DNA of 64,000 nt from Dehalococcoidia bacterium (GTDB taxonomy: Bacteria > Chloroflexota > Dehalococcoidia > Bin125): assembly GCA_022825265.1 (NCBI GenBank), contig JAJDXE010000004.1, positions 270,341-334,340 on the forward strand. Reading direction: 5' to 3'. The stretch's first letter is position 1. Every line of letters starts with the position of its first letter. The translations under genes and the position numbers were made by a program. Of this stretch, positions 491-45,940 are shown in pieces. A model generated the notes under the pieces. That model did no database searches and was not told the DNA's origin. It saw only the letters and a list, made by a program, of their open reading frames with translations.

Positions 491-606
491 GTGAAATCCC
501 TTCGCCCGGTCTCAGCGGATATCTCAGGCCGAGGGTATCAGCGAGCCTGCCGTACCATGCCGCACGACGACGCTTTTCCGTGATCGATGAGTGAGAGGCC
601 GAGACC

Positions 607-10633: not shown

Positions 10634-10716
10634 CGTGCTACTCCTCCAGCGGAAGTCTATATGGCAGGTATTCTGAGGCTCACGCCAAGCAATCAGACAA
10701 CTCGAGGAACATCATC

Positions 10717-11490: not shown

Positions 11491-12908
11491 TCCGCCGCGT
11501 CTGCAGGATTGAGGTCACGCAGTTCTCGATGAGTCAGATTGCGTGTAGTGACGGCAAGCTCGTCGAGCTCAGGGGCGTCTTTGCCTTCCGTGCCACCACC
11601 GAGCTCCCGCATTCGACGCGCACCGACGAGCAAGTCGCCTTGCAGAGAGCCGACCCCGGTGTCGTAGGCCTTGGCCGTGCTTGAGATTGCGCGTCCCAAG
11701 CGGGCGTAGTGCTCGGCGTGTCGTCGAACCCCGTCATAGATCGTCTGGGCGTGCTGTTGAATCTCATTCGCCTTGTCATGAAAGCGTTCCTGTCGCAACG
11801 CCTCTGCCACTCCAGTCACCAAGGCGAGCATCGTGACCGGAGTCGCCAGCAACACGCGATGCTTTTCGAACGCCTCGGCGATCAAATCGGGACGGGCTCG
11901 GGTTGCCGCTTCGAGAATGCTGTCAGATGGAATCCACATAACGACCACGTCGAGGGCCTGGTCGATGTTCTCCGCATACTCCACGCGAGCCAGGTCGCGA
12001 GCGGTGTTCAAGACATTCGACGCATGACTCCTGAGCAGTTCCTGCTGTTGCGCTTCGTCAGTGGCGTCAAGCGCCGATCGATAGTCGTCAAAAGGGACCT
12101 TTGAATCGATCACAATCCTTCGTCCACCCGGCATGCGCACGACCACGTCTGCACGGCCCGACCCTTGATCGGTGTTGACCTGGGTCTGGTAATCGGTATC
12201 TGGTCGCATGCCTGCGAGCTGCAGGATGTTCTCCAGGGTTCTCTCGCCCCAATCACCGCGTAACTGACTTGAGCGCAGGATCTCTCGAAGGTCTCCAGTC
12301 TCAGAACTCAGTTGGCCGACTTGCTGCTGCGTGGCTTTGATGAGCGCGCTGACACCTTCGTACGCGCCCTCTCGCTGTTTCTCAAGGTCGGCAATCTGCT
12401 TCCGAAGCTCCGTCAGGCTCTCGCCGACCGGCTCGACTCGCTGTTTCAACTCCTGCTCGGCCAGTTCGCGCTGTCGCTTGAAGTCCTCGGCCGCCTGCTT
12501 GCGGAATTCCTCGTTGCTGGCTTTCGCGACATCGGCGGCGATGCTCTTGAACAGGGTGTCGATCTCCTGCTGCTTCTTGTTCAACTCCTCGATCCGCGCT
12601 TCCCGGTCCGACTCGACCTGTTTGAGTTCTTCGCGAGCCTCGCCCAGGCTGTCGCGCAGAGTAGAAGCGCGACCCCGCTCCGCCTCCAGATCGTGCGCAG
12701 CCTGCTGCAGTTGCGATGACCGCTCCTCCAACCGCGCGCTCGCCTCTGTTCGCTCCCGTTCGGCGTCTTGCAGCACTCCGCGAACTTGATCCAATTCCAT
12801 GCGCAGGTCCGCCGATTCAGCGCGCAAACCCGACGCCTCTCGCCTCACGAACCAGGCCGCTGCCGCGCCAACCGCTAACCCGACGATCAAGCCAATGACA
12901 ATTTCCAT
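11487..12908 (-). CDS. rmuC: DNA recombination protein RmuC.
   Basis: 473 aa with an N-terminal TM helix, a long coiled coil and a conserved C-terminal RmuC domain (RADVVVRMPGGRRIVIDSKVP...). Confidence 0.75.
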   Translation of the reverse strand: MEIVIGLIVGLAVGAAAAWFVRREASGLRAESADLRMELDQVRGVLQDAERERTEASARLEERSSQLQQAAHDLEAERGRASTLRDSLGEAREELKQVESDREARIEELNKKQQEIDTLFKSIAADVAKASNEEFRKQAAEDFKRQRELAEQELKQRVEPVGESLTELRKQIADLEKQREGAYEGVSALIKATQQQVGQLSSETGDLREILRSSQLRGDWGERTLENILQLAGMRPDTDYQTQVNTDQGSGRADVVVRMPGGRRIVIDSKVPFDDYRSALDATDEAQQQELLRSHASNVLNTARDLARVEYAENIDQALDVVVMWIPSDSILEAATRARPDLIAEAFEKHRVLLATPVTMLALVTGVAEALRQERFHDKANEIQQHAQTIYDGVRRHAEHYARLGRAISSTAKAYDTGVGSLQGDLLVGARRMRELGGGTEGKDAPELDELAVTTRNLTHRELRDLNPADAAD

Positions 12909-12956
12909 CGAGTCCTCCCGACTGCCGCTTCCGGGCGACCGTCTCGATGCTATCTA

Positions 12957-13769
12957 ATGGACGTAACGGCAGAGACGAAGATCGGAAGCGGCATGCCCTG
13001 GTTTCTCGTTCACGTGCTCTGGCTCGCGATTCTTGCCGGCGCGGCCTGCGCGACATTTGGATGCAGCTCGGGAGACTCGATCAGCGGCGAGGTCCGATTC
13101 CACCGAGAGGTCGACCTGCCCGACGGCGCCACCGTGACGGTCAAGCTGCTCGATACATCGCTGGCCGACGCGTCCGCGGTCGAGCTTGGCGCGGTAGTGA
13201 TTGAAGACGCCAAGAGCCTGCCCGTCGCCTTCAGCATCGAATACGACCCTGACGAGGTCGACAGTCGCGCCGAAATCACACTCCAGGCCAGGGTCGAAGT
13301 TGGCGACGACCTGCTCTACATCAACGACACCGTCCACCCCGTGCTGACCCGCGGCAATCCGCGTAACAGCGACGTTCAGGTGATCTCGGTGAGCGAGTCC
13401 GACCAGTGCGTCGAGCCGCTGCCGGGCCAGATTCACTCCAGCTTCTGGGAAGGCGACCTGCCCGATGATGCGGTCCTCGAAGTCCGGCTCTGGGACGTTT
13501 CCGAGCCAGGGGAGCGCTTCGTCGTGGTCGAGGCCAGCTTCGACAATCTCGGATCGTTCCCGATCGACTTCGAGCTACCGCACGAGGGCGTGGAGATCAG
13601 CCGTCATCATCGTTACGAACTCCAGGCCGACATCTGGTTCGACGGTGAGCTGCAATTCCATATCCCAAACCCCGAGTGGCGACGCACCATCCTGCCCTAC
13701 TGCCCCGACGGCGACGACCTGATGATCGTCAACGACGTCTTCCCAGTTTCCGAGTTCCCGGCTGAATAG
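12957..13769 (+). CDS. YbaY-like lipoprotein with duplicated domain.
   Basis: Signal/lipobox-like N-terminus (LAILAGAACATFGCSSG). Two repeats of the pattern VxLLDxSLADA...PVxFxIEYDP. The real start is possibly the internal Met at about 12993. Confidence 0.55.
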   Translation: MDVTAETKIGSGMPWFLVHVLWLAILAGAACATFGCSSGDSISGEVRFHREVDLPDGATVTVKLLDTSLADASAVELGAVVIEDAKSLPVAFSIEYDPDEVDSRAEITLQARVEVGDDLLYINDTVHPVLTRGNPRNSDVQVISVSESDQCVEPLPGQIHSSFWEGDLPDDAVLEVRLWDVSEPGERFVVVEASFDNLGSFPIDFELPHEGVEISRHHRYELQADIWFDGELQFHIPNPEWRRTILPYCPDGDDLMIVNDVFPVSEFPAE

Positions 13770-33592: not shown

Positions 33593-33610
33593 AGCCTCAG
33601 TGTATGAGGG

Positions 33611-33926
33611 GGTGGTCGGTGGTTAGGGAGGAATTTTTTTCTGAGGCCGCTGTGAGAAAAAGAATCGCGATCTCCAGTGTTTTACGGGAGATCGTGAGCG
33701 TCTGGGTGGTCGGAAGTGGTTGGGGTTGGAAGGTGTTGGAAAGCGGGGGTGTCCAGTTGAGCCTTGCTCGGCTTTGCTGGGCGTGTGGCGAGTGGCTGAA
33801 TGGTCGGTGGTCGGGCCGGAAATTTTTTCCTGAGCGCGCCGAGGAAAAAAGAGGCACGATCTCCTGTGTTTTGCAGGGAATCTTGGAGAGCGAGGTGGTC
33901 GGAAGTGGTTTGGAAGGTGTTGGAAC
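33611..33926. repeat. Two tandem direct repeats of about 130 bp separated by about 60 bp, each carrying an A/U-rich hairpin. Possibly a duplicated sRNA or integration-site remnant.
   Basis: Unit 1 runs about 33611-33741 and unit 2 about 33801-33926, with long colinear identity. The hairpin is tttttct...agaaaaa in one copy and tttttcct...aggaaaaa in the other, a compensatory change. Local GC is lower than the genome. Confidence 0.6.
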
Positions 33927-34026
33927 GTTGGCGGTCACTGCGGATTGCTTCTCTTCTGCCTGTCGAACCTGTGTGCGTTATTCTATCGTGATGGGCGATG
34001 GGCTGGGGGAGTCGTAGGATTCAGCT

Positions 34027-37000
34027 ATGCCAACTCCGGAGCTATGCGGCAAATTCGCTCAATACATCCTCGATCGGCACAATCAGGCCGCCGCCGAGGC
34101 AGACATCCGAGCGGCGGCGCGCGACTTTCTGATCGAAACAGGACTCGCCGATCGCGAAGAGATCGACATGGAACAGTCACCGGCGAGCGGTTGGTCGGGA
34201 CGGGTCGACCTGCGGACGCGTGACGTCATTGTCGAGTTCAAGGTGAGAATCGGCGATCGGATCAACCCGGACGAGAAGCACGTCAACCAGCTCGACGACT
34301 ATCTCAAGGCGGCAGTGGAAGGCGGACGACCACAGCGATTCGGGATCCTGACCGACGGCAAGTACTGGGTTCTGAGATGGCCGGGGATGGGGCTGGTGCG
34401 GACGCAGGCGCCGCACGCCTTCACGCTGAACAGTGCTGACCAGGGCCTGCTGCTGTACGAGTGGCTGCGCGACCAATCGCAGGCGCTGGAAGAGCGTGGC
34501 GTGCCGCCAACGGAGGACGAAGTCAAGAAGCGACTGGGCGAGGGCCCGCGATTCGAGCAGCACATTGCTGCGCTCAACGACCTCTACCAGGCCAAGCGAG
34601 ATGATCCGACGATTGCTCTCAAGCGCGATCTCTGGCGGAGCCTGCTGGCTGCCGCGCTGGGTCAGGTGGTGGAGGAGGAACCGGACCTTGACGAGCTCTT
34701 TGTGCGACATACCTATCTCTCGGTCGTGGTCGGACTGGCGGTGCAGGCGGCGTTCGGGATTGAAATCGAAGGGGCGGCTAACAGCGATCCCGTCGCGCTG
34801 CTGGGCGGTCAATTGTTCGTCGACCAGACCGGCGTCAGCGGCGTGGTCGAGTCGGACTTCTTTACCTGGCCTGCGGAAATCGGCGGGGACGAGTGGATCC
34901 GCGACCTGGCGCAGCGGATTGGCTGGTTCGACTGGAACGAGGCGGAGTCGGACATTGCGCGGATTCTGTACGAATCGGTGATTCCCGCCGACGACCGGCG
35001 ACGGCTGGGCGAGTACTACACGCCCGACTGGCTGGCGCGGGAGATTGTCGACGCGGTGGTGACCGACCCGCTGAATCAGCGGGTGCTCGATCCGGCCTGC
35101 GGATCGGGATCGTTCATCTTCGCGGCGGTGCGCAAGTACCTGAGCGCGGCCCAGGCCGACGGGCGGAGCTCGGCGCAGGCGGTGGACGGACTGCTGGATC
35201 ACGTGATCGGGATCGACGTGCATCCGGTCGCGGTGCATCTCGCCCGGGCGACCTGGACGCTGGCCGCCCGCGACGCGCTGGAAGGCGCGGTCGCCGAAGG
35301 CCAGTCGGTCAACGCGACGGTGCCTGTCTACCTGGGCGACTCGCTGCAATTGCGGGCCGAGACCTCGGGCATGTTCGCCCAGCAGACGGTGACGATTCCC
35401 GTGCCCGACCCGCCCGACTCAGACCTCGAGTTCAACCGAGAGCTGGAGTTTCCCCGAGCCCTGGTCGAGCAAGCCGACTGGTTCGACAACCTCATGACGC
35501 GAATGGCCAACGCGATCGAGAACGGTGAGGACCCGGCCTGGGCGCTGGACGACGAAGCGATCGGCAGCGGGCCGGAGCGGGAGATGCTGGAGAAGACCGC
35601 CGCCCTGCTGCAGCAACTCCACGAAGAAGGCCGCGACCACATCTGGGCGTACTACACGCGGAACCTAGTACGTCCGGTGGCGCTGCGGGCGGATCCGGTG
35701 GATGTGATCGTCGGAAATCCGCCGTGGATCACGTACAACAAGACGCAGGCGGTGATTCGTGAGGAGTTGGAGCGGCAGAGCAAGCAGCGATACGAAATCT
35801 GGGCGGGTGGTCGCTACGCGACGCACCAGGACATCGCGGGCATGTTCTACGCGCGCTGCGTGGAGCTGTACCTCAAGCAAGGCGGCATGGCGGCGATGGT
35901 GCTACCGCACAGCGCCTTGCAGACCGGACAGTACACGAAGTGGCGAACAGGTCAGTGGGGCGTGCTATCGGTTGACCTGGGCGTGCGCCCGCCGTGGGAC
36001 CTCGAACAGGTCGAACCGAACAGCTTCTTCCCCGTCCCATCTTGCGTGGCGTTTCTGCTGCGCAGGGAACCGAGCGGTAAGCCGCTCGCAAGTCAGGCGG
36101 AGCGGTGGTTGGGGGGTGCCGGAGGGCCGTTCTCGCGTGAGCGAGTTCGCCTATTCGACACATCCGGCGACTTTGCATCGCCATATGGGGGACGTGCCAG
36201 GCAAGGTGCAACAATCGTGCCTCGTGTTCTCTTTTTCGTCAACGAACAGTCTTCAATGGCCGCCGTCCAAGCGGCCAACACCGTGACCGTCTCTCCTCGG
36301 CGAAGCAGACAAGAAAAAGCACCCTGGAAACACCTTCAGCTACCAGAGCTGAAGGGTCAGACGATTGAAGCTGGGCACGTCTTCGACGTTCACCTCGGTG
36401 AGACCCTTGCCCCGCATGTGTTGTTGACGCCCCTAAGGGCAGCCTTGCCTCTTGCGAAGTCAACAAGAGTGTTGGCCAAGGCGGAGGATGGTTGGTTTGG
36501 AGTGGATCCGTTATCACTCGACGAGCGAATGCGTCGTCGCTGGAGACGAATCAGTGGTATCTGGGATAAGCAGAAGGGTGTGAACAACAAGCTAAGCCTG
36601 CTTGAAAGATTGGATTACGTCGGCAATCTCACTAACCAGAGAACGCTTGTCTCGCTAGGCACGAGGATCGCCTACACGAAGTCCGGCCGTCCGACGGCAG
36701 CTGTTGTCGATGATGATGCAGCCGTCATCGATCACACGGCCTATTGGGTTCAAGTCGGTTCGGAGACCGAAGCACATTATATTTCCGCAGTCATCAATAG
36801 CGACACTCTGGAAGCTGCGGTCGCACCGCTCATGTCGAAGGGTCAGTTCGGCGCGCGCGACATGCATAAGCACCTCTGGCGACTGCCTATCCCCGAGTAC
36901 GACGACACCGACCCGCTCCACGTCGAACTGGCTGAGGCCGGTGAGGCGGCGGCGATTGGCGCGAAGGCGCTCTGGGATGGGGTTCGGGTTGAGCGCGAGG

Positions 37001-37116
37001 GCAAGGGTCAGTCGACATCGGTGACGGTGGCTCGGCGTGAGATACGGAAGTGGTTGTCGGAGTCGGCGGAGGGTCGGCGGGTGGAGGAGTTGGTGTCGAG
37101 GTTGTTGGGGGGTTAG
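34027..37116 (+). CDS. MmeI-family Type IIL restriction-modification enzyme: single polypeptide with N-terminal PD-(D/E)xK nuclease, N6-adenine methyltransferase and C-terminal specificity domain.
   Basis: 1029 aa. The N-terminal RVDLRTRDVIVEFKV matches the MmeI VDLx8IEMK nuclease motif. Also has GEYYTPDWLAREIV, LDPACGSGSFIF (motif I) and IVGNPPWITYNK (motif IV, NPPW, gamma-class amino-MTase). A C-terminal region of about 400 aa would be the target recognition domain. Confidence 0.75.
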   Translation: MPTPELCGKFAQYILDRHNQAAAEADIRAAARDFLIETGLADREEIDMEQSPASGWSGRVDLRTRDVIVEFKVRIGDRINPDEKHVNQLDDYLKAAVEGGRPQRFGILTDGKYWVLRWPGMGLVRTQAPHAFTLNSADQGLLLYEWLRDQSQALEERGVPPTEDEVKKRLGEGPRFEQHIAALNDLYQAKRDDPTIALKRDLWRSLLAAALGQVVEEEPDLDELFVRHTYLSVVVGLAVQAAFGIEIEGAANSDPVALLGGQLFVDQTGVSGVVESDFFTWPAEIGGDEWIRDLAQRIGWFDWNEAESDIARILYESVIPADDRRRLGEYYTPDWLAREIVDAVVTDPLNQRVLDPACGSGSFIFAAVRKYLSAAQADGRSSAQAVDGLLDHVIGIDVHPVAVHLARATWTLAARDALEGAVAEGQSVNATVPVYLGDSLQLRAETSGMFAQQTVTIPVPDPPDSDLEFNRELEFPRALVEQADWFDNLMTRMANAIENGEDPAWALDDEAIGSGPEREMLEKTAALLQQLHEEGRDHIWAYYTRNLVRPVALRADPVDVIVGNPPWITYNKTQAVIREELERQSKQRYEIWAGGRYATHQDIAGMFYARCVELYLKQGGMAAMVLPHSALQTGQYTKWRTGQWGVLSVDLGVRPPWDLEQVEPNSFFPVPSCVAFLLRREPSGKPLASQAERWLGGAGGPFSRERVRLFDTSGDFASPYGGRARQGATIVPRVLFFVNEQSSMAAVQAANTVTVSPRRSRQEKAPWKHLQLPELKGQTIEAGHVFDVHLGETLAPHVLLTPLRAALPLAKSTRVLAKAEDGWFGVDPLSLDERMRRRWRRISGIWDKQKGVNNKLSLLERLDYVGNLTNQRTLVSLGTRIAYTKSGRPTAAVVDDDAAVIDHTAYWVQVGSETEAHYISAVINSDTLEAAVAPLMSKGQFGARDMHKHLWRLPIPEYDDTDPLHVELAEAGEAAAIGAKALWDGVRVEREGKGQSTSVTVARREIRKWLSESAEGRRVEELVSRLLGG

Positions 37117-38321
37117 GCAATCGGAGCCTTCCGAAGTTCCGCGTAAGGAATCTCAGGAATGTCAAGCAACGCAGACAAGTCAACACCCTCTGTCCAAAGC
37201 AACTGACCATCGTGAACGTGAGCCGACGCTACACTCAGGAGTTCTTTCGGGAGGTTCTGCTTGTAATGAGGGTTGAGAAACAGACGATCTCCGTAGCCAG
37301 TAGGCGTTGTCGCGACTGGACGTGCATTGCCGAACAGCCATACAGCCGCGAGATTCTCATTTCGAGCAACGCCGCTCTTATCGATCCAGACGCCTCTCTC
37401 AAGCCTTGGTTCTCCTAACTTTACATTCCAGTCAGGAGGCCCGTACTCTCGATTGCGAAGGCCGAAAAGTGATACAAGTCCTTCTTCAGCAAAGTTGTAG
37501 AAGCCATCTACTGTGCTGCACGCAACAACTAAAGGAGCGTCCAGCTGGCCTACTCGTTTCTCCCGCGCCTTCCTGTCGACCGCGGCACCAAGTGTAGGAG
37601 ATACATCCTTTGCGCCACCACCGAACCAAGCTGCTATCGTTCGCCCGGCAGAGATACCCCACTTTTCTCGCGGCTTGGGCCAAAGCCCTACATGGAGACT
37701 GCAGCCATCGAGCTCAATCGTCACTGAAGGAGCGTCGACGCGACGTGAATAACTACCGTCGACCTGCTGGAGAACTCTATCGGGGTCGCTATCCGCCATA
37801 AGACGTCGAATGCGCGATTGGATGTATCTTTTGGATGGTTGATTTGTAGGACAGCCGGATGGACGGACAGTGACCAGAAAGTGAGGGTCGTCGATTTCAT
37901 CGATCCACGTGTAAATCTGGTCTAGGATCGCGTTATCTGGTATCTCGGCGCTCGATGCCTGACTTACGGTTGCTTCGAGGTAGAATCGATTATCTCCCGA
38001 TCGGGCAAGGAAGTCTGGTTGGGAGTTAACACCCGGCACCCTTGGATGGACGGTGACAGCAAAGCCGAGGCGGCGTAGGAGCTCATGCACAACGAGCTCA
38101 AAGTACGCGCCAAGATGTTGGCCCTCGTCGTCTGACGTGAAGCGGCCGTGCAAATCGTCTCGATGATGATCCGTGGATGGATAGTCCTCAAACATAGCTT
38201 GGCACAAATCGCGGGATCGAATGGAGACATTCCAAGATGATCGATTCAGGAACTCGTACTCGCTCTCAAGGTGGTGTTTGGCCGAGGAATCCATCTGGAT
38301 ATCGTGTTCGAAGAGCTGCAT
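37113..38321 (-). CDS. Hypothetical 402-aa protein of unknown function, lower GC, convergent with and overlapping the 3' end of the Type IIL gene.
   Basis: Long ORF with coherent codon usage distinct from the host. Has a possible degenerate PD-(D/E)xK-like stretch (QPDFLARSGDNRFYLEATVS). No family recognised. Confidence 0.5.
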   Translation of the reverse strand: MQLFEHDIQMDSSAKHHLESEYEFLNRSSWNVSIRSRDLCQAMFEDYPSTDHHRDDLHGRFTSDDEGQHLGAYFELVVHELLRRLGFAVTVHPRVPGVNSQPDFLARSGDNRFYLEATVSQASSAEIPDNAILDQIYTWIDEIDDPHFLVTVRPSGCPTNQPSKRYIQSRIRRLMADSDPDRVLQQVDGSYSRRVDAPSVTIELDGCSLHVGLWPKPREKWGISAGRTIAAWFGGGAKDVSPTLGAAVDRKAREKRVGQLDAPLVVACSTVDGFYNFAEEGLVSLFGLRNREYGPPDWNVKLGEPRLERGVWIDKSGVARNENLAAVWLFGNARPVATTPTGYGDRLFLNPHYKQNLPKELLSVASAHVHDGQLLWTEGVDLSALLDIPEIPYAELRKAPIA

Positions 38322-38438
38322 GGCGGTCGATCCTCCAGCGATTGTTGTATCACGAAATCACGACGGTGGGTGGGATGTGGAGCGGCTATAGGTCGCGGTA
38401 GGTGGCTTCGTTGCGGCGGAGAACGTCGGTGATCGTGA

Positions 38439-38924
38439 TCAGGCGGGCGCGGCTTCAGTGAGCGTGACCGAGTGTGGGTTGTAGGAGAGGGCGAGGTCGA
38501 AGGAGCGGAGGGCGTCCTGGCCGAGGAGACTGGGGGCTTCCCAGTTGCTATCGGGCGTGGGTAGTGGGGTGGATGGCCGGGCGATCAGGATTGGTTGATC
38601 GACGACCACGGGCTTGTGCTCTTCGTCGCTGAAGGTCAGGCTAGCGGGCCGAATCACGTACTGACTCGCGCTGCCGCTGATCCCGTAGAGGTCGAAACGG
38701 GCGATGTCCCGGTCAAAGTCGATGCCCTGATAGGCCGCCCCCAGGACAGCACGCGCATGAGCTGGAGACAGCGCGGTGTAGTCCGCCCCGGTGTCGATCT
38801 GCATCCAGATCGCCGCGCTACGGCCCGCAATCTGAACCGATACGCGAACCACGGGCCGCAACACATTGCCGAGAAGCGGATGAAAGGAAGCTTCGCTCTC
38901 AAACTCCGCTCGAACCCGCGCCAC
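38439..38924 (-). CDS. Retropepsin-like (clan AA) aspartic protease.
   Basis: 161 aa with an IDTGADYTAL (DTGA) aspartyl-protease motif and a GTG start that overlaps the upstream stop (TAGTG). Confidence 0.65.
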   Translation of the reverse strand: MARVRAEFESEASFHPLLGNVLRPVVRVSVQIAGRSAAIWMQIDTGADYTALSPAHARAVLGAAYQGIDFDRDIARFDLYGISGSASQYVIRPASLTFSDEEHKPVVVDQPILIARPSTPLPTPDSNWEAPSLLGQDALRSFDLALSYNPHSVTLTEAAPA

Positions 38925-39222
38925 TACTGCGCTCGTTTGGGACGGGGGAAGGAATCAGCATGACGGAGCATCGGCCGCCGCCGAATGAAGTAGTGATAGG
39001 CGCCGCGCCGCTGTGAATCGGGCAGCGCTTCCAGCGCGGCGAACATCTCGGCAGGGTGGTCGAAGATGTGGATCGTCTCCGCGTCGTAGATCAGGACCCA
39101 TTTTCCGCGATTGTGAGGAGAGATTTCGGCGCTCTGCTCGGCCCAGCAAGCGACGTTGCGCTCGTACACGGCAAGATCCGCAAGTTGAGTCTCAACGTCG
39201 GACGCGTGCTGACTGCTGACCA
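38924..39222 (-). CDS. Small conserved hypothetical protein (about 99 aa, possibly DUF5678-like), translationally coupled to the retropepsin-like protease.
   Basis: Sequence MVSSQHASDVETQLADLAVYERNVACWAEQSAEISPHNRGKWVLIYDAETIHIFDHPAEMFAALEALP... It is embedded as the C-terminus of a long spurious antisense ORF in the track. Its stop overlaps the protease start by 1 nt. Confidence 0.5.
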
Positions 39223-39322
39223 TGATGAACGGCCTCCCTGTCGACGATGGTAATCGAACGTGTGCCCACCCTCTACACTGGCCCCAGACCTCCCGCGTAC
39301 CCCTCCGATGAAGGAGTTTCCG

Positions 39323-40561
39323 ATGAAGTTTCACTGGTTCAACCTGATGCCCTGGCCTCATCTTCCGGATGATTTCCGGGAGACGAATCGGTCGGTCTGG
39401 GTCGATGTGGACTCTCGGCTGTATGACCCGGTGGAGGGTCACCGGGTGTACAACGAGTACCTGGACCAGCTTGAGTTTGCGGCCGGGCTGGGCTTTGACG
39501 GGATCGGCGTGAACGAGCATCACCAGAACGCGTACGGGATGATGCCGTCGCCGCAGATCATGGCGGCCTCGCTGGCTCGGCGGACGAAGGACGTGACGCT
39601 GCTGCTGCTGGGTCAGTCGATTGCGCTGTACAACCCGCCGACTCGGGTGGCGGAGGAGATGGCGATGCTCGACGTGATGTCGGGCGGTCGGCTGGTGGCG
39701 GGATTCCCGGTGGGGACGTCGATGGACGACAACTTCTGCTTCGGCTCGAATCCGGCGACGCTGCGGGACAAGTACAGGGAGAATCACGACCTGATCCGTC
39801 GGGCGTGGGAGGATCCGGATGTCTTCTCGTGGAACGGCGAGTACAACAAGATTCGCTACGTCAACCTCTGGCCGCGTCCGATCCAGAAGCCGCACCCGCC
39901 GATCTGGATTCCCGGCGGCGGCTCGGTGGAGACCTGGGACTTCTGCGCGGAGATGGGCTACAACTACAGCTATCTCTCGTTCAATGGCTATGTCCGCGGT
40001 GAGGCTCTGATGCAGGGCTTCTGGAATCGGCTGGGCGAGATGGGCGTCGAGTTCAATCCGTTCCAGGGCGCGTTTGCGCAGCAGGTCGTGGTCGCCGAGA
40101 CCGACGATCAGGCCGAGCAGATGTACACCGAGCATCTGCAGTACTTCTTCGACAAGTGTCTGCATGTGTATCCCGGCTTCGCCGACGCGCCCGGGTACCG
40201 GACCGAGAACACAATCCGGGCCGGTCTGCGAGCCGGCGGCGCGCAGGGTCTGGGCATTGCGCACACGCTCGAGTGGAAGGACTGGGTGCGCGAGGGCTAC
40301 ATCGTGGCCGGCTCGCCGGACTCGGTGGCGGAGCAGATCGAGGCCCTGGCGACGAAGCTGCAGGTCGGCCACCTGGTGACTCTGCTGCACTGCGGCGACA
40401 TGCCGGACGACAAGGCTCGGGCGTCGACGAAGCTGTTCGCCGAGCAGGTGATGCCTCGGGTGAAGCACATCTGGGAAGACTACGAAGATCACTGGTCGCC
40501 GAAGCCGATCGGCTCGGAGCAGGTCGCGACGCCGGCTCCGGTGCTGACGGGCTCCAACTAG
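39323..40561 (+). CDS. LLM-class flavin-dependent oxidoreductase.
   Basis: Begins MKFHWFNLMPWPHLPDDFRETNRSVWVD...NEHHQN. An AAGGAG sits 7 nt upstream of the ATG at 39323. Confidence 0.8.
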   Translation: MKFHWFNLMPWPHLPDDFRETNRSVWVDVDSRLYDPVEGHRVYNEYLDQLEFAAGLGFDGIGVNEHHQNAYGMMPSPQIMAASLARRTKDVTLLLLGQSIALYNPPTRVAEEMAMLDVMSGGRLVAGFPVGTSMDDNFCFGSNPATLRDKYRENHDLIRRAWEDPDVFSWNGEYNKIRYVNLWPRPIQKPHPPIWIPGGGSVETWDFCAEMGYNYSYLSFNGYVRGEALMQGFWNRLGEMGVEFNPFQGAFAQQVVVAETDDQAEQMYTEHLQYFFDKCLHVYPGFADAPGYRTENTIRAGLRAGGAQGLGIAHTLEWKDWVREGYIVAGSPDSVAEQIEALATKLQVGHLVTLLHCGDMPDDKARASTKLFAEQVMPRVKHIWEDYEDHWSPKPIGSEQVATPAPVLTGSN

Positions 40562-40580
40562 GCGCATGCCTCTACTTGGT

Positions 40581-40722
40581 GAAGACCTCCCCCTCTGGGG
40601 GAGGTGCCCCGGAGGGGCGGAGGGGGCCTCTCTGCGAGCTGCGGACGTTAACGAATCTGACAGTGGGAGCCGAGCCCCCTCAGTCGCTTCGCGACAGCTC
40701 CCCCAAAAGGGGGAGGTCTTGC
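40581..40722. repeat. Complete but empty MITE-like copy of the CCCCCTCTGGGGG-family element: both inverted-repeat arms around a 44-bp core.
   Basis: Left arm is gacctCCCCCTCTGGGGGaggtgccccggaggggcggagggggcc. Right arm is gccccctcagtcgcttcgcgacagctcCCCCAAAAGGGGGaggtc. These match the arms flanking the DUF559 gene at 15468 and 15894 nearly base for base. Confidence 0.7.
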
Positions 40723-40787
40723 CTCGTGGTTGACGTGACCTGCTCGCGCATGGTGATCAGCAACGATGGACTTTTCGGACTGATCCG

Positions 40788-42038
40788 GTGAAGTTCCACT
40801 GGTTTCACGGGATGCCGTGGCCGCATTTGCCGGCCGATTTCCGTGAGCGCAATCGATCCGTGTGGGTTGACGCCGACTCGCGGTTGTACGAGCCGGTCGA
40901 GGGCCACCGGCTGTATCACGAATACCTGGATCAGCTCGAGTTCGCCGAGCGCGTTGGTTTCGACGGGCTGGTGCTCAACGAGCATCATCAGCACGTCTTT
41001 GGCCTGATGCCGTCGCCTCAATTGATGGCGGCGGCGTTGGCCCGGCGAACGTCGCGGGCGGCGATCGTTCTGCTGGGCATGTCGATCGCGCTCTACCGTC
41101 CGGCGACGCGGGCGGCGGAGGAGATCGCGATGCTCGACGTGATCTCCGGCGGCCGGATCGTGGCTGGATTTCCACTCGGCACGCCGATGGACGCAAACTA
41201 CGCCTATGGAGCGAATCCGGCGGAGTTTCGTCGCGTCTACCGCGAGCACCACGATCTGATCCTGCGGGCCTGGAAGGATCCGGACGTATTCACCTGGAAC
41301 GGCGAGTCGGCGAAGCTGCGCTACGTGAATGTCTGGCCGCGTCCGGTTCAGCAGCCGCATCCGCCGGTCTGGATTCCCGCGGATGGCGTCTCGTCGGAGA
41401 CGTGGGACTTTTGTGCTGAGCACAGGTACGCCTATGTTTGTCTCGCCTCTCGCGGATTCGCACCGGCGCAGTCGGCGATGGACGGATTCTGGTCGCGAGT
41501 TGAGTCGCGAGGGATCCCATGCAATCCGTACCAGGGTGTGGTTTCTCAAACGATTGTGGTGGCTGAATCCGATGAGGAGGCGCAGGAACGGTATCAGCCG
41601 CATCTGGACTACACGTCGCGGCACACGCTTGGCGACTTCCCCGGCTGGACCGAGGCGCCCGGCTGGCGCACGGAGCGGGGCATCCGCGAACGCGCCGTCC
41701 GAACGATGGCCGACCTGGGTAATCCAACTCCGCCGCGCATCCCGACGTGGCAAGAGCGAATAGACAGCGGCTCGCTGGCCGCCGGTTCGCCGGTGACGGT
41801 CACCGAGCACTTGGAGCACCTGGTGACAACGCTGCGCGCCGGCCACCTGGTCGGCGTGTTCCACGTCGGCGATATGCCGCACGACGCGACCCTGCGCAGC
41901 ACTCGACTGTTTGCTGAGCAGGTAATCCCACGTCTGCGACACTTGTGGGACGATTACGACGACCACTGGTCGCCGACCCCGATCGCGACCGAACCACTGA
42001 AACGAACGACTGAACCCGAACTCGCAGGAGTGAACTGA
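40788..42038 (+). CDS. LLM-class flavin-dependent oxidoreductase, paralogue of 39323-40561.
   Basis: GTG start. MKFHWFHGMPWPHLPADFRERNRSVWVD..., colinear with the upstream paralogue. Confidence 0.8.
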   Translation: MKFHWFHGMPWPHLPADFRERNRSVWVDADSRLYEPVEGHRLYHEYLDQLEFAERVGFDGLVLNEHHQHVFGLMPSPQLMAAALARRTSRAAIVLLGMSIALYRPATRAAEEIAMLDVISGGRIVAGFPLGTPMDANYAYGANPAEFRRVYREHHDLILRAWKDPDVFTWNGESAKLRYVNVWPRPVQQPHPPVWIPADGVSSETWDFCAEHRYAYVCLASRGFAPAQSAMDGFWSRVESRGIPCNPYQGVVSQTIVVAESDEEAQERYQPHLDYTSRHTLGDFPGWTEAPGWRTERGIRERAVRTMADLGNPTPPRIPTWQERIDSGSLAAGSPVTVTEHLEHLVTTLRAGHLVGVFHVGDMPHDATLRSTRLFAEQVIPRLRHLWDDYDDHWSPTPIATEPLKRTTEPELAGVN

Positions 42039-42832
42039 TGGCTGAACTGAAGACGCTCGACCTCCGCCCTGGCGGACAGACCGCCCACGTCTGGGAAGGC
42101 GGCGATCCCGGATCGCCGGCGCTGCTCTTTCTGCACCCGATCACGGGGATTCCTCGCTGGGGCGACGCGCTGGAGACGTTGGCTAACGACTTCCACGTGA
42201 TTGCGCCGTATCAGCCCGGCTGGGGTCCGGCCAAGGACGATCTGCCCGGAGCTCACGATGGGCTCGACCTCGTGCTCTTCAACGTCGACCTGCTCAACAC
42301 GCTGGGCGTCGGCTCGGCGCATGTGATCGGGGTCAGCATTGGCGCCTGGATCGGCGCGGAGATTGCGGCGATTCGGCCGGACGCGGTGCAGTCGCTGACG
42401 TTGGTCAACCCGCTCGGTCTGTGGTCCGAGCAGTACCCGGGCGAGGACGCGTTCGCCCAGCATCCGGGGTTCCCTACCGCCGTCCTGTTCAGTAATCCGG
42501 ACAAGCGCACCGAGCTCTTGATGGCCGACCGCGATCCGATGGACGCGTACGTCGGCGAGTTGCTCGATTTGCGCGCCTCGGCCAAGTTCCTCTGGCCGAT
42601 TCCGGACACGGGCGTCGGCCGGCGTCTGGTGCGGATCGACACGCGGACGCTGATCGCCACCTCCGAGCACGACAATATCGTGGCGACTGAGATGGGCGAT
42701 ATCTGGCGAGCGGCGATCCCGGGGGCGCAGTCGGTGCAGTTGTCCGACTCCGGGCACATCGCCGACCTGGAGATCCCGGAGGCCCTCGCCGACCTGGTGC
42801 GCAACTTCGCTCTGGAGGGCGTGACGGCGTGA
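42038..42832 (+). CDS. Alpha/beta hydrolase.
   Basis: 264 aa with LLFLHP, GVSIGAW (nucleophile elbow) and a C-terminal SGH. Confidence 0.75.
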   Translation: MAELKTLDLRPGGQTAHVWEGGDPGSPALLFLHPITGIPRWGDALETLANDFHVIAPYQPGWGPAKDDLPGAHDGLDLVLFNVDLLNTLGVGSAHVIGVSIGAWIGAEIAAIRPDAVQSLTLVNPLGLWSEQYPGEDAFAQHPGFPTAVLFSNPDKRTELLMADRDPMDAYVGELLDLRASAKFLWPIPDTGVGRRLVRIDTRTLIATSEHDNIVATEMGDIWRAAIPGAQSVQLSDSGHIADLEIPEALADLVRNFALEGVTA

Positions 42833-43788
42833 CCAAGTTTGGACTGACTCTGACCAACCGGGGGGTGGTGACTGGCGATTCCTCGCTTGAGGAGATGTAT
42901 GCGCTGACTCGGTTGGTGGATGAAGATGAGCGCTGGACTTCGGTCTGGGTTGGGGACTCGATCACGGCCAAGCCTCGGTTGGACGCGCTTTCGCTGATGA
43001 GCGCGCTGGCGGCTCTGACCGAGCGCGTGCGGATTGGGCCTGGTTGCTTTGCGACGACTCCGGTGCGCCCGGCGACGCTGCTTGCCTATCAGTTAGCGGC
43101 GATCGACGTGATTTCCAATGGCCGGTTGACCTTTGCCGCCTGTATGGGGGCGGCCGACAACTCCGAGTTTGAGCACTTCTGCGTCCCGGCCGTGACTCGG
43201 TCGGGACGGATGGAAGAGGCCGTCGAGATCATTCGCCTACTGACCTCGGAGGACAACGCGTCCTATCACGGCAAGTACAACGATTTTGACAACCTGACGA
43301 TCGAGCCTCACTCGATCCAGCGGCCGATCCCGATTCTGATCGTTTCCAATCCGAATCCCAATGATGCGCGAAATCGGGAACGCGGGTTGAGCCGCGTCGC
43401 CAGGTTGGGCGACGGCTGGATGTCGACGACTCTAACTCCCGAGTTGCTGGGCGAGTATCTCGGCGACATCCGACGCTACGCCGACGAGGCGGGACGCGAG
43501 TTGCGGGAGGACTTTGACGTCGTGGCTTTCCACTCGGTCATGATCGACGACGATCGGGATGCGGCCTTTGCTGAGGCCAAGCGGTTCCTGGACGAGTACT
43601 ACTTCCTCGACCATTCCGAGACCGCCGTGCGGCGCTGGTGCTCCTACGGTCCGCCTGAGCAGGCGGTCGAGGACATCCAGCGCTACATCGAGGCGGGGGC
43701 GACGACGGTGCTGCTGCGGATTTGCAGTGGCGACCAGACGACACAGTATCGGCGGATATCGGAGGAAGTGCTGCCGGCGTTCGTCTGA
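42829..43788 (+). CDS. LLM-class F420-dependent oxidoreductase.
   Basis: 319 aa. MTKFGLTLTNRG...VWVGDS... is typical of F420-dependent LLM proteins. Confidence 0.8.
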   Translation: MTKFGLTLTNRGVVTGDSSLEEMYALTRLVDEDERWTSVWVGDSITAKPRLDALSLMSALAALTERVRIGPGCFATTPVRPATLLAYQLAAIDVISNGRLTFAACMGAADNSEFEHFCVPAVTRSGRMEEAVEIIRLLTSEDNASYHGKYNDFDNLTIEPHSIQRPIPILIVSNPNPNDARNRERGLSRVARLGDGWMSTTLTPELLGEYLGDIRRYADEAGRELREDFDVVAFHSVMIDDDRDAAFAEAKRFLDEYYFLDHSETAVRRWCSYGPPEQAVEDIQRYIEAGATTVLLRICSGDQTTQYRRISEEVLPAFV

Positions 43789-43842
43789 CTTCATCGTCTT
43801 GCGGTAATCCCTACCCTGCGTTCGCATGAACGGGGGACTGGC

Positions 43843-44820
43843 ATGGTCAACTTTGGACTGACACTTTCGAATCGGGGCGTTGTGACGGGCGCTTCGACGC
43901 TGGAGGACATGATTGCGCTGGCTCAGCGGGCGGACTCGGATGAGCGCTGGGACAGCATCTGGGTTGGCGACTCGATCCTGGCAAAGCCTCGGCTGGACGC
44001 GCTGACGCTGATGGGCGCGCTGGCGGTGGTGACGGAGCGGGTCCGGATTGGGCCGGCGTGCTTTGCCTCGACTCCGTTGCGGGACGGGTTGTTGTTGGCG
44101 TACCAGTGGGCGTCGCTCGACTTCATGTCCAACGGACGGACGATCTTTGCGGCCTGTATGGGCCAAGCCGCGCCGGGCGGCGGCGACATGCTGCATGAGT
44201 TCGACGCGTTCTGCGTGGCGCCGGAGTCGCGGATGAAGCGGATGGAGGAGGCGATCGAGGTGATGCGATTGCTGACCTCGGAGGACGACGTCTCGTATCA
44301 CGGCGAGTACAACGACTTCGACAACGTCACCATCGAGCCGCGCTCGGTTCAGCGTCCGGTTCCCATCTGGGTGACATCGAATCCTCGGCCGAACCTGACT
44401 CGCAACCGTGAGGCGGGGTTGCGACGGACGGCTCGGCTTGGCGACGGTTGGATGACGACGTTCCAGCCTCCGGCGATTGTCGAGGAGTACCTGGCCGACA
44501 TTCGTCGTTACGCCGATGAGGAGGGTCGCAAGCTGGCGGATGACTTTGAGGTTTGCGTTTACTACAACATCAATGTTAATGATGATCGTCAGGCGGCGTT
44601 GGATGAGTCGCGTCGCTACCTCGAGGCGTACTACACGACGACCTACACGGACGAGGCACTGGGCCTGTGGGTGGCGATGGGGACTCCTGAGCAGTGCATT
44701 GGCGACATCCAGCGGTACGTTGACGCGGGGGCGACGACGATCACGCTGCGGCTGGTGGGCTACGACCAGCAGGCGATGTACGACCGTGTGGTGGACGAGG
44801 TCTTGCCGGCGTTCGACTGA
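43843..44820 (+). CDS. LLM-class F420-dependent oxidoreductase, tandem paralogue.
   Basis: 325 aa, colinear with 42829-43788. Confidence 0.8.
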   Translation: MVNFGLTLSNRGVVTGASTLEDMIALAQRADSDERWDSIWVGDSILAKPRLDALTLMGALAVVTERVRIGPACFASTPLRDGLLLAYQWASLDFMSNGRTIFAACMGQAAPGGGDMLHEFDAFCVAPESRMKRMEEAIEVMRLLTSEDDVSYHGEYNDFDNVTIEPRSVQRPVPIWVTSNPRPNLTRNREAGLRRTARLGDGWMTTFQPPAIVEEYLADIRRYADEEGRKLADDFEVCVYYNINVNDDRQAALDESRRYLEAYYTTTYTDEALGLWVAMGTPEQCIGDIQRYVDAGATTITLRLVGYDQQAMYDRVVDEVLPAFD

Positions 44821-44893
44821 GTCCTGCGCACGTCGAGTGTCTTCCTCGATCGCATCCCGCGCTAGCCTGCGGGGTGAGTGATTGGAGTTGGGG

Positions 44894-45940
44894 ATGGAGA
44901 CTCAGCGGGTTGATTCCAATGGGATTCGGATCAATGTGCTCACGGATGGGCCGTCGGATGGGCCTCCCGTTCTGCTGATCCATGGATTTCCTGAGACTTC
45001 CTATGAGTGGCGGAAGCAGATTCCGGCTCTGGTTGATGCCGGGTATCGGGTGATTGTTCCCGATACTCGCGGGTACGGCGAGTCGGACAAGCCTCCCGGG
45101 CCGGTGTCTCGGCGGACGCTGGCGGCGGACATGGTGGGGGTGCTGGACCACTTCGACGTTGACGAGGTTGCGCTGGTCGGGCATGACTGGGGTGGGATTA
45201 TCGGGTTCAAGGTGGTGATCGACTGGCCCGAGCGGATCTCGAGCGTGGCTCTGATGGACACGCTCTGCACGGTCTGGACGCCGTTTGCGGTGCATGGATT
45301 CTGGTTCAAGGCTCGGCCGCTGCCGGAGCACTTCTATGCGGAGTATCACGCGCAGTTCATCGAGGCGATCTTCACCGGCGAGTCAGACCCTGAGCTGCCG
45401 GGCTGGCCGGAATCGCCGTGGAATGTGAGCGGGCGACGGCTGACGCCGAATCGGTGGGCGACGGACGAGGATGTCGAGGTCTACAAGCGTGCGTTTTCGG
45501 ACCCGGACTCGCAGGCGGCGGCGATTTCGTACTACCGACACGCGCTGCCCTTCCATCGGATGCACGCCGACGAGAATGTCGCCGGCGGCTATCGCTGTGA
45601 GCGGCTGACGTCGGCGCAGGTCGGCGAGGTCTGGCGTCGGGGGCTGGACGACCATCCCTGGGGCCGGGAGTTCATGGAATACGGGCCGGAGGATCGGCAC
45701 AAGCGATTCGAGAAGCCGGCGCTGTGGATGTACGGGAACGCTCGGCTGGCGCCGGACAGTCCGCCGAGTCGGGAGACGCCGTCGGGCAATCCGTTCTTCG
45801 ACCAGTTCCCGATGTACTTCCCCGACCTGACATCGGTGGGCGTGCCGGGGGCGGGTCATTTCTTCCCGGAGGAGGCGCCGGAGTTTACGAACAAGACGCT
45901 GCTTGAGTTTCTCGCGAATGCGAGCCAGACGGAACAGTAG
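44894..45940 (+). CDS. Alpha/beta hydrolase (epoxide-hydrolase / haloalkane-dehalogenase-like).
   Basis: Contains LLIHGFPETSYEWR and GHDWGG. Confidence 0.75.
   Translation: METQRVDSNGIRINVLTDGPSDGPPVLLIHGFPETSYEWRKQIPALVDAGYRVIVPDTRGYGESDKPPGPVSRRTLAADMVGVLDHFDVDEVALVGHDWGGIIGFKVVIDWPERISSVALMDTLCTVWTPFAVHGFWFKARPLPEHFYAEYHAQFIEAIFTGESDPELPGWPESPWNVSGRRLTPNRWATDEDVEVYKRAFSDPDSQAAAISYYRHALPFHRMHADENVAGGYRCERLTSAQVGEVWRRGLDDHPWGREFMEYGPEDRHKRFEKPALWMYGNARLAPDSPPSRETPSGNPFFDQFPMYFPDLTSVGVPGAGHFFPEEAPEFTNKTLLEFLANASQTEQ

Follow-up and report, generated by a model that had tools for sequence, protein, structure and literature searches.

A probable single-chain restriction-modification enzyme of the TspDTI family encoded by a Dehalococcoidia bacterium

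The window analysed here, that is, the whole 64,000-nucleotide stretch of DNA from a Dehalococcoidia bacterium, encodes a protein that very probably belongs to the TspDTI/Tth111II/TsoI family and acts as a stand-alone, single-chain restriction-modification (RM) enzyme. This would class it as Type IIS/IIC/IIG, and also as 'Type IIL' if that term is taken to mean protection of a lone strand. To judge from its sequence, this single protein probably both cuts and methylates DNA. It is an ordinary addition to an already known enzyme family and would not surprise a restriction-enzyme specialist.

Domain organisation and family relationships

The RM gene (Table 1) begins with ATG in the ORF listing of the window and encodes 1029 aa, with an estimated mass of ~114 kDa. 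One 100%-identical entry and hundreds of full-length homologs in the protein database rule out a chance ORF; the label given to these homologs by NCBI is merely 'N-6 DNA methylase'. The ORF and the four motifs quoted in an earlier note on this DNA are all genuine, since the translation places RVDLRTRDVIVEFKV at aa 59-73, GEYYTPDWLAREIV at aa 328-341, LDPACGSGSFIF at aa 354-365 and IVGNPPWITYNK at aa 561-572, with ~390 aa C-terminal to the methyltransferase domain. The Pfam models N6_Mtase and Eco57I exceed their gathering thresholds and the PADLOC model REase_MTase_IIG matches at 1e-69. The AF2 full-chain model (pLDDT 83), which has DrdV as top full-length structural match, and the domain boundaries give the order R - helical - MTase - S. 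Models, Pfam and alignments thus bear out the description of a single polypeptide in which an N-terminal PD-(D/E)XK nuclease is followed by a helical linker, by a gamma-class m6A methyltransferase and by a target-recognition domain (TRD).

Table 1. Features of the RM gene and its immediate surroundings (window coordinates)
Feature	Coordinates	Strand	Basis or remark
Divergent promoter region (rhomboid left, RM right)	33593..34026	.	Holds repeat units
Complete RM gene	34027..37116	+	1029 aa; ORF list, translation, full-length homologs, TspDTI homology, AF2 model
N-terminal PD-(D/E)XK endonuclease domain, aa 1-156	34027..34494	+	Domain model, Foldseek, hhalign to TspDTI nuclease domain
Putative catalytic motif D61-X8-E70-X-K72, VDLRTRDVIVEFK	34207..34242	+	Conservation, hhalign to TspDTI
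QxxxY motif, Q88-L-D-D-Y92, after the ExK strand	34288..34302	+	Conservation, TspDTI alignment
Helical connector, aa ~157-320	34495..34986	+	All-helical in AF2 model; aligns with TspDTI helical linker
Gamma-class N6-adenine methyltransferase domain, aa ~321-640	34987..35946	+	Pfam, PADLOC, BLASTP to TspDTI
Motif X, GEYYTP	35008-35025	+	Translation; motif X at aa 328
Motif I, LDPACGSGSF, aa 354-363	35086-35115	+	Translation
Motif IV, NPPW, within GNPPW aa 563-567	35716-35727	+	Translation
Target-recognition domain, aa ~641-960	35947..36906	+	Conservation profile, BLASTP to TspDTI, TspDTI loop proposal
Motif VIII, F667/F668	36025-36030	+	Within TRD span
C-terminal helical bundle, aa 961-1029, after conserved LPIPEY turn	36907..37113	+	AF2 secondary structure; TspDTI C-terminus
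orf402, convergent 402-aa orphan ORF	37113..38321	-	4-bp overlap with RM stop codon

The family assignment relies on comparison with TspDTI, the sequence of which we reconstructed from the supplement of the paper describing it. A profile of 30 homologs retrieves TspDTI with E=4.4e-65 (hmmsearch, PDB-sized Z), the match consisting of three colinear segments, N-terminus included. With a profile of 74 family sequences, E falls to 2.5e-116 and a single alignment spans 18-1021 against 15-1101. With hhalign, the match has a probability of 100 and E=6.7e-50 over 884 colinear columns (18-977 against 18-1060) and pairs D61, E70 and K72 with D66, E75 and E77 of TspDTI. Pairwise BLASTP yields two colinear segments, one with E=1e-39 (29% identity over 267-634, insertion included) and another with E=3e-11 (880-1028 against TspDTI 960-1103). 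'Close homologues' of TspDTI have been delimited at E<1e-40 (Zylicz-Stachula et al. 2012, PMC3384240), a cut that the pairwise BLASTP value narrowly misses, so that our protein is, as far as sequence can tell, a distant member of the TspDTI subfamily. The hallmarks of this subfamily are DPACGSG as motif I and NPPW as motif IV, as opposed to DPA(V/M)GTG and NPPY in the TspGWI subfamily (PMC3384240, Table 1); the nuclease motif is D-X8-E-X-E in the Thermus enzymes and D-EXK in other homologues, within one ~120 kDa polypeptide of order R - helical - MTase - S (PMC3384240). DPACGSG, NPPW and D-X8-EX(E/K) are all three present in our protein. The family is large (1994 clusters at 50% identity with E<=1e-30, from many phyla). 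TspDTI matches all 74 aligned members, best those carrying D-EXE, which are five in number and its nearest relatives; from one of these (L082), a search of a large protein database returned no Thermus protein or named enzyme among the best 120 matches.

It is on the nuclease domain that a competing reading has to be weighed, namely that of a protein that is only a methyltransferase, either orphan or PglX/BrxX-like, with an N-terminal domain that is non-catalytic or serves protein-protein contacts. PADLOC and Pfam models gave nothing above threshold in the N-terminal 260 aa, and a profile of aa 1-160 retrieved only designed helical proteins (E>0.2) among solved structures, so that this domain is tied to known structures through the comparison of folds. 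The isolated domain (model pLDDT 88) has a helix-helix-strand x3-helix-strand x3-helix topology and models as a PD-(D/E)XK nuclease nearest that of DrdV, its top Foldseek match (E 2e-3, prob 1.0, 18-19% identity), which is followed by BsaXI, BpuSI, Cas4 and Hjc. The D, E and K residues, on the conservation of which the earlier note had staked its nuclease, are invariant among 30 homologs and nearly so among 74, of which 71 have a residue at these positions (D61 in 70/71, E70 in 71/71 and K72 in 66/71, the other five having E; many phyla). Q88 and Y92 are likewise invariant in the 30-homolog alignment; the corresponding stretch of TspDTI reads QQVKDY, and we take this motif to resemble the QxxxY of RecB/HsdR-type nucleases. 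In the 74-homolog alignment, the D/E/K, QxxxY and TDG residues are kept across phyla down to 25% identity, a pattern that looks like that of an active site under selection. Moreover, the homologous Thermus enzymes are proven endonucleases. BrxX/PglX proteins do figure among the strong Foldseek matches, with the highest TMq (0.40-0.43), and PglX models of NCBIfam and PADLOC match weakly, but the NCBIfam BREX scores amount to 44.6 against 400, 32.9 against 500 and 30.4 against 900 bits, and neither PglZ, BrxC, BrxL nor a helicase is encoded in the ten flanking ORFs (28.8-42 kb) or in five homolog contexts. Even with the bare methylase label given by NCBI and the syntenic chromosomal site of the gene in related genomes on its side, we consider the methyltransferase-only reading very unlikely.

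Residues 201-320 of the connector are 88-98% identical to those of the closest relatives (P0006, P0012 and P0014). The methyltransferase motifs follow the gamma-class order, with X at aa 328, I at 354, IV at 564 and VIII at 667, and a ~100-aa insertion shared with TspDTI separates motifs III and IV. NPPW had been taken to announce a novel specificity, which does not follow, because this motif IV is common to the whole TspDTI subfamily (73 of 74 family members) and its contact is with the flipped adenine rather than with the recognition sequence. In the TRD, to which Pfam TaqI_C has a sub-threshold match, aa 841-920 form the most variable stretch of the conservation profile, and YTKSGR (883-888) and IDHT (901-904) align with WTRLAK968 and PQET987, the specificity loops proposed for TspDTI. 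The C-terminal bundle aligns with the ends of the PADLOC models PDLC03580/03630. The recognition sequence is probably not yet in the catalogue, and the protein, whose specificity is probably different, could thus become a new reagent enzyme of Type IIS/IIG.

Genomic context and allelic variation

The neighbours of the RM gene encode a 2-oxoacid:ferredoxin oxidoreductase, an SDR, a rhomboid protein and LLM monooxygenases. A scan of the 64-kb window for ORFs with (D/N/S)PP(Y/F/W) revealed no companion methyltransferase, the sole other match being an SPPF on the minus strand at 43839 that resembles a shadow ORF, and five homolog contexts contain neither a companion methyltransferase nor a conserved partner. 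The region upstream of the RM gene holds two copies of a ~130-bp unit, 189 bp apart and with two hairpins per unit, and is possibly regulatory. An Rfam scan of this repeat region returned nothing, its RNA folding z-scores are only -1.1 to -2.3, and promoter and terminator scans of the upstream region and of the RM 3' end were uninformative.

Downstream, orf402 has no match in Pfam, NCBIfam, PADLOC, PHROGs or PDB and is possibly a degenerate PD-(D/E)XK protein. Its family is very rare (seven clusters in the protein database) and adjoins an RM homolog in three of seven distinct contexts, the window included. This rarity, the 4-bp overlap of orf402 with the RM stop codon and the nuclease-like appearance of its conserved PDFL...YxEATV core would suit two genes acting together as a module, as would the same convergent pair with a 4-bp overlap at a second locus (L088) and, at a third (L086), an adjacent and convergent pair at 36% (orf) and 55% (RM) identity amid different surrounding genes. 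We nevertheless judge such a module highly improbable: the convergent orientation speaks against co-transcription, orf402 is missing from the first five RM-homolog contexts examined, and ParE, AAA_15/21 and AIPR genes are housed in this variable islet too, where adjacency may simply reflect shared occupancy of a hotspot. Four other orf402 contexts (L089/L090, L087, L091 and L092) lack an RM homolog, which excludes orf402 as an obligate partner of the RM enzyme.

The RM alleles at the conserved chromosomal hotspot are mosaic, their methyltransferase core having diverged far less than the nuclease domain and the TRD. That alleles at this site, between the rhomboid and LLM-monooxygenase genes of this Dehalococcoidia lineage, swap whole modules (TRD and nuclease), with orf402 as a functional accessory, is a proposition that we regard as doubtful; if true, exchange of the nuclease module would point to the nuclease as a target of selection in its own right, for example through phage anti-restriction proteins or partner-specific oligomerisation. 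The natural mosaic alleles, with a near-identical methyltransferase core and a diverged TRD, also provide a data set for mapping specificity determinants, as with MmeI. The few family members studied so far are closely related Thermus enzymes (TspDTI, TsoI and the isoschizomers Tth111II/TthHB27I), all of them with D-EXE, whereas the present protein stands for the canonical D-EXK branch, which is much larger and extends over Dehalococcoidia, Acidimicrobiia, Streptomyces and Alphaproteobacteria, among other groups; its own clade holds no biochemically studied enzyme. The current 'N-6 DNA methylase' annotation misses the conserved nuclease domain of these proteins.

Expected mode of action

TspDTI (ATGAA), Tth111II/TthHB27I (CAARCA) and TsoI (TARCCA) cleave at 11/9; Tth111II is stimulated by SAM, methylates one strand only (CAARC(m)A) and requires at least two sites for efficient cutting. 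It is from these relatives that we infer the enzymatic activity, one-strand methylation, multi-site requirement and cut distance of the Dehalococcoidia protein. By homology with Tth111II and structural likeness to DrdV, the methyltransferase domain and the TRD would jointly bind a short asymmetric site, and one adenine would be flipped into a pocket made of NPPW567, Y330/Y331 and F667. SAM-dependent methylation of this adenine, on one strand, would then protect the host DNA. The documented precedent of Tth111II and the absence of a companion methyltransferase nearby make such one-strand, 'Type IIL'-style protection plausible. On unmodified DNA with at least two sites, enzymes bound to different sites would assemble and their N-terminal PD-(D/E)XK domains (D61/E70/K72 with Mg2+) would cleave the two strands a short way downstream, at a constant distance that the helical connector sets and that is probably near 11/9 nt. 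This distance, which replaces the ~20 nt expected in the earlier note, is an extrapolation from TspDTI, Tth111II and TsoI and may not transfer to our protein, because both the protein and its connector are shorter than in TspDTI.

The longer distance belonged with an assignment to the MmeI family proper, that is, to Type IIL enzymes cutting 20/18. Domain order and kinds of motifs are indeed alike, and MmeI is among the Foldseek matches of the full model (E 7e-11). The invariant residues E24, E49, D61, E70 and K72 occupy secondary-structure positions like those of E25, E51, D70, E80 and K82 in MmeI, but the spacing is D-X8-E against D-X9-E in MmeI, the MmeI_N alignment is non-significant and the MmeI nuclease is unresolved in 5HR4. 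Among the Pfam models, MmeI_N (E 0.018; five of 30 relatives below E 1, the best at 7.7e-4) scores 15.8 against a gathering threshold of 27 and MmeI_Mtase 26.9 bits against 27, with a partial match, whereas MmeI_hel, MmeI_TRD and MmeI_C have no match; phmmer finds no MmeI match in the PDB at E<=1. The TspDTI paper also reports very limited similarity to MmeI, mainly in the methyltransferase core. Members of the MmeI family are defined by similarity with E<1e-20 over the entire length (Morgan et al. 2009, PMC2731913), and the 30-homolog profile aligns with MmeI (5hr4) at E=1.3, with 10 bits over 35 residues, against 4e-65 for TspDTI with the same profile, which leaves the MmeI assignment with a barely perceptible chance of being right. 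The 'rationally reprogrammable specificity' once attributed to the protein goes with that assignment, having been demonstrated for the MmeI family only.

Comparison with known systems

PglX/BrxX proteins (PDB 8C45, 9EWZ) have a related methyltransferase and TRD fold, but PglX has no nuclease active site and acts as part of a BREX cluster of several genes, whereas a cluster of that kind does not surround the RM gene. MmeI (PDB 5HR4) resembles our protein in its succession of a PD-ExK nuclease, a helical arm, a gamma-class m6A methyltransferase, a fused TRD and C-terminal helices, without a second methyltransferase in either case; it differs in its 20/18 cleavage and its D-X9-ExK spacing. DrdV from Deinococcus (PDB 7LO5/7LVV), a Type IIL RM enzyme likewise of 1029 aa and with the same four-domain layout, is the best whole-chain structural match (Foldseek E 1e-15, about 1150 alignment columns), ahead of BpuSI, MmeI and BrxX; its whole-chain TM-score is low (0.37) because the orientations of the domains differ. 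Beyond the fold, the PDB profile search does not list DrdV at E<=10, its motif IV is NPPY (N448...Y451) instead of NPPW, and its spacing between motifs X and IV is much shorter. DrdV nonetheless supplies the best mechanistic model: its nuclease is domain-swapped, and it cleaves DNA only in assemblies that join several sites.

The TspDTI/Tth111II/TsoI enzymes share with our protein the nuclease, helical linker, methyltransferase and TRD in full-length colinear homology, together with LGEYYTPDWLA, DPACGSG, NPPW, the D-X8-E-X-(K/E) spacing, the insertion between motifs III and IV, the C-terminal ...IP.Y..TDP.H..LAE... segment and the absence of a companion methyltransferase. Identity with TspDTI is only ~28%, the protein is at 1029 aa shorter than the Thermus enzymes (1106-1121 aa), by 83 aa in the case of TspDTI, and the connector (about 160-320 against 160-360) is roughly 40 aa shorter. 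In contrast with the atypical D-EXE of these Thermus enzymes, the protein from this member of the Dehalococcoidia (Chloroflexota) carries a canonical D-EXK.

A predicted restriction-modification gene of the TspDTI family

The restriction-modification (RM) gene lies exactly where the earlier note had placed it, and its translation contains all four peptides quoted there (see the table of features). Public data contain one 100%-identical protein and >100 full-length homologs (52-81% identity), and an exhaustive profile search delimits a family of 1994 clusters (50% identity) at E<=1e-30, mostly about 1000-1090 aa long; among GTDB genomes the nearest relatives come from Dehalococcoidia MAGs. By these comparisons the gene is real.

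The Thermus TspDTI subfamily (TspDTI, Tth111II/TthHB27I, and TsoI) is characterised by motif I DPACGSG, motif IV NPPW, and a nuclease D-X8-E-X-E, with D-EXK recorded instead in uncharacterised homologues (Zylicz-Stachula et al. 2012, PMC3384240). Using a 1112-aa TspDTI sequence reconstructed from Additional file 2 of that paper, BLASTP retrieved two colinear HSPs with the RM protein, one at 29% identity (aa 267-634, E 1e-39), within which both proteins carry an unusual ~100-aa insertion between motifs III and IV, and one at 28% (aa 880-1028, E 3e-11). In hhalign, the family alignment matched TspDTI with probability 100 and E 6.7e-50 over 884 columns (18-977 against 18-1060), pairing D61/E70/K72 with TspDTI D66/E75/E77, QLDDY with QVKDY, and GILTDGKYW with GVAFDGRYL. 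A 30-homolog profile recovered TspDTI at E 4.4e-65 (hmmsearch), and a 74-sequence profile at E 2.5e-116 in a single end-to-end alignment; TspDTI as query matched all 74 family members, the nearest being exactly the five with D-EXE. These matches place the RM protein in the TspDTI family, and not in the MmeI family, as a distant (about 28% identity) yet unambiguous member of the canonical D-EXK branch.

The earlier note had instead assigned the protein to the MmeI family, membership of which is defined by E<1e-20 to MmeI over the whole length and aligned D70/E80/K82 (Morgan et al. 2009, PMC2731913). The RM protein query found no match to the MmeI chain with phmmer and, with the profile and database size used for TspDTI, MmeI (5HR4) reached only E=1.3 over 35 residues. 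Among Pfam models, MmeI_hel, MmeI_TRD, and MmeI_C never matched, and MmeI_N remained sub-threshold (E 0.018; E below 1 in 5/30 relatives). On these grounds we reject MmeI-family membership. The TspDTI authors likewise limited the likeness of TspDTI to MmeI to domain order and the methyltransferase core (PMC3384240).

Domain architecture and the predicted N-terminal nuclease

The Pfam models N6_Mtase and Eco57I scored above threshold in the RM protein, and MmeI_Mtase, matching over one third of the model, stopped at 26.9 bits, just short of its cutoff of 27. The top PADLOC model, the Type IIG RE-MTase family PDLC03630 (1e-69), spans the methyltransferase and, in a second stretch, the last 100-140 residues, leaving the first 260 residues uncovered. 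An AlphaFold2 model built from 30 homologs (mean pLDDT 83) had as its top PDB match in Foldseek the Type IIL enzyme DrdV (E 1e-15, full-length alignment), followed by CamA, BrxX/PglX, BpuSI, and MmeI. On architecture and lifestyle the reading in the earlier note was correct.

The earlier note had named loss of the N-terminal D/E/K residues as grounds for giving up the nuclease reading; these residues are conserved. Our 74 homologs from GTDB genomes (identity down to 25%) span Dehalococcoidia, Acidimicrobiia, Streptomyces, Alphaproteobacteria, Planctomycetota, an archaeon, and others; 71 have residues at the three positions, with D61 conserved in 70/71, E70 in 71/71, and K72 in 66/71 (E in the other five). 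E24, E49, D61, E70, K72, Q88, Y92, and D110 are invariant across 30 homologs. Modelled on its own (pLDDT 88), the segment aa 1-160 shows the helix-helix-strand-strand-strand-helix-strand-strand order of a PD-(D/E)XK core, in which strand 2 carries D61 and E70/K72 lie where strand 3 ends. In the PDB, this model matched the endonuclease domain of DrdV best (E 2e-3, probability 1.0, 18-19% identity), followed by BsaXI, BpuSI, Cas4, bunyaviral cap-snatching endonucleases, and Hjc resolvases. With this conservation and these fold matches, the reading of the N-terminus as a predicted nuclease stands. Family members of 1200-1300 aa (P0276, P0295, P0301, P0303, P0308, P0316, P0321, P0038, and P0074) have an additional 215-270-residue N-terminal extension before this domain.

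Features of the RM gene, its protein, and its surroundings (nucleotides of the window, or aa of the RM protein; domains from the AlphaFold2 model)
Feature	Position	Strand	Remarks
Divergent intergenic region	33593-34026		434 bp, upstream of RM gene
Variable islet	~33600-39250		between rhomboid protease gene and first LLM gene
Repeat unit, copy 1	about 33610-33745		~130 bp
Repeat unit, copy 2	about 33798-33930		~130 bp; copies 189 bp apart
RM gene	34027-37116	+	ATG start; 1029 aa
N-terminal domain	aa 1-156		mixed alpha/beta
Peptide RVDLRTRDVIVEFKV	aa 59-73		
Connector	aa about 157-320		all-helical
Methyltransferase	aa about 321-640		Rossmann
Peptide GEYYTPDWLAREIV	aa 328-341		
Peptide LDPACGSGSFIF	aa 354-365		
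Peptide IVGNPPWITYNK	aa 561-572		
TRD	aa about 641-960		beta-rich
C-terminal helices	after TRD		three
orf402	37113-38321	-	402 aa
161-aa ORF	38439-38924	-	
~98-aa ORF	38924-39220	-	possible; precedes 161-aa ORF
547-aa ORF	38924-40567	-	
LLM monooxygenase gene	39260-40561	+	
LLM gene run	39260-45940		four paralogs, alpha/beta-hydrolase genes interspersed
SPPF match	43839	-	

A variable islet with mosaic alleles

Housekeeping genes flank the RM gene. Those upstream encode a 2-oxoacid:ferredoxin oxidoreductase, an SDR, and a rhomboid protease; downstream is the run of luciferase-like (LLM) monooxygenase genes, whose arrangement is conserved in L001. In the related genomes L001 and L005 the RM gene occupies the same place between rhomboid and LLM genes, and in other relatives the hotspot lacks an RM gene. 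The small genes that follow vary (ParE toxin, AAA_15/21 fragments; AIPR in L088). The islet is variable in the lineage (window, L001, L005, L087-L091), containing, depending on the genome, the RM gene, orf402, a ParE toxin pair, AAA_15/AAA_21 fragments, an AIPR abortive-infection protein, and small orphans. Among the window, L001, and L005, identity of the flanking proteins is mostly 90-97% (about 82% for the rhomboid protease), against only 81% and 63% for the RM protein. The 161-aa ORF has sub-threshold retropepsin-like aspartyl-protease matches (PF13975, E 8e-5) and a 50%-identical copy in the L005 islet. The 547-aa ORF, arginine/histidine-rich, low-complexity-looking, and without family match, almost certainly shadows the real LLM gene at 39260-40561, whose ortholog in L001 is 97% identical.

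The orphan orf402 lies in a local GC dip (0.57), convergent with the RM gene, whose stop codon it overlaps by 4 bp. Searches of Pfam, NCBIfam, PADLOC, PHROGs, and PDB gave no match, and just 7 clusters represent it among 5.8 billion proteins; it adjoins an RM-family gene in three of seven distinct contexts (window, L088, L086) and is absent from the remaining RM contexts checked. Its conserved core, FEL...VTxHP...PDFL...YxEATV...KAxxK, hints at a degenerate PD-(D/E)XK fold. Upstream of the RM gene, each repeat unit contains an A/T-run hairpin (TTTTTTTCT...AGAAAAA), and copy 1 also an 11-bp GATC-containing hairpin (CGCGATCTCC...GGAGATCGTG); syntenic L005 carries a single copy of the unit, and L001 just a degenerate version. 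Rfam gave no match for this region, and the z-scores for folding reach only -1.1 to -2.3; the unit may be a small mobile repeat or serve as a regulatory site.

We compared the RM gene with its syntenic L001 allele (10001-13102). Codons 251-550 and 951-1029 are 88-97% identical in nucleotides, with third-position identity of 0.77-0.92 within conserved residues, whereas for codons 1-200 (nuclease domain) and 651-950 (TRD) these values drop to 57-78% and 0.35-0.61; codons 551-650 fall in between (77-79% and 0.52-0.55). Silent sites in the nuclease and TRD segments are near saturation, far under the housekeeping baseline (82-92% nucleotide, 0.60-0.81 third positions). Because silent sites differ too, this pattern suggests a mosaic gene shaped by segment exchange between alleles, nuclease domain included, and not by selection alone. 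The most variable stretch, aa 841-920, holds the positions aligned with the specificity loops proposed by the TspDTI authors (PMC3384240), namely WTRLAK968 with YTKSGR (883-888) and PQET987 with IDHT (901-904).

Predicted recognition, cleavage, and strand protection

The earlier note had taken NPPW as a sign of novel specificity. This motif occurs in 73/74 family members and is, from its distribution, a family trait that would bind the flipped adenine without information on the recognition sequence. Nor do the expected cut at about 20 nt and reprogrammable specificity carry over: all characterised TspDTI-family members cleave at 11/9, not 20/18, and reprogramming was shown for MmeI only. For the RM protein 11/9 is itself a prior only, since its connector is about 40 aa shorter than that of TspDTI. 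The gene's value lies in a probable new specificity, and the mosaic allele series is a natural set for mapping specificity in the TspDTI family.

By analogy with Tth111II, which methylates one strand only, CAARC(m)A, the idea of one-strand ('lone-strand') protection survives. Across the 64-kb window, a search for further (D/N/S)PP(Y/F/W) ORFs yielded none that is credible; its one additional match, SPPF, looks like a shadow ORF. No companion methyltransferase or recurrent partner lies beside the five homologs examined. Efficient double-strand cleavage by Tth111II requires two or more sites and is stimulated by SAM. The methyltransferase and TRD of the RM protein would recognise a short asymmetric site, and the adenine would be flipped into a pocket of NPPW567, Y330/Y331, and F667 for SAM-dependent methylation. 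Several site-bound molecules may join their N-terminal domains to cut unmodified multi-site DNA, as in DrdV, where multi-molecule assembly of site-bound enzymes has been visualised, and in Tth111II, where multi-site cooperation has been shown kinetically.
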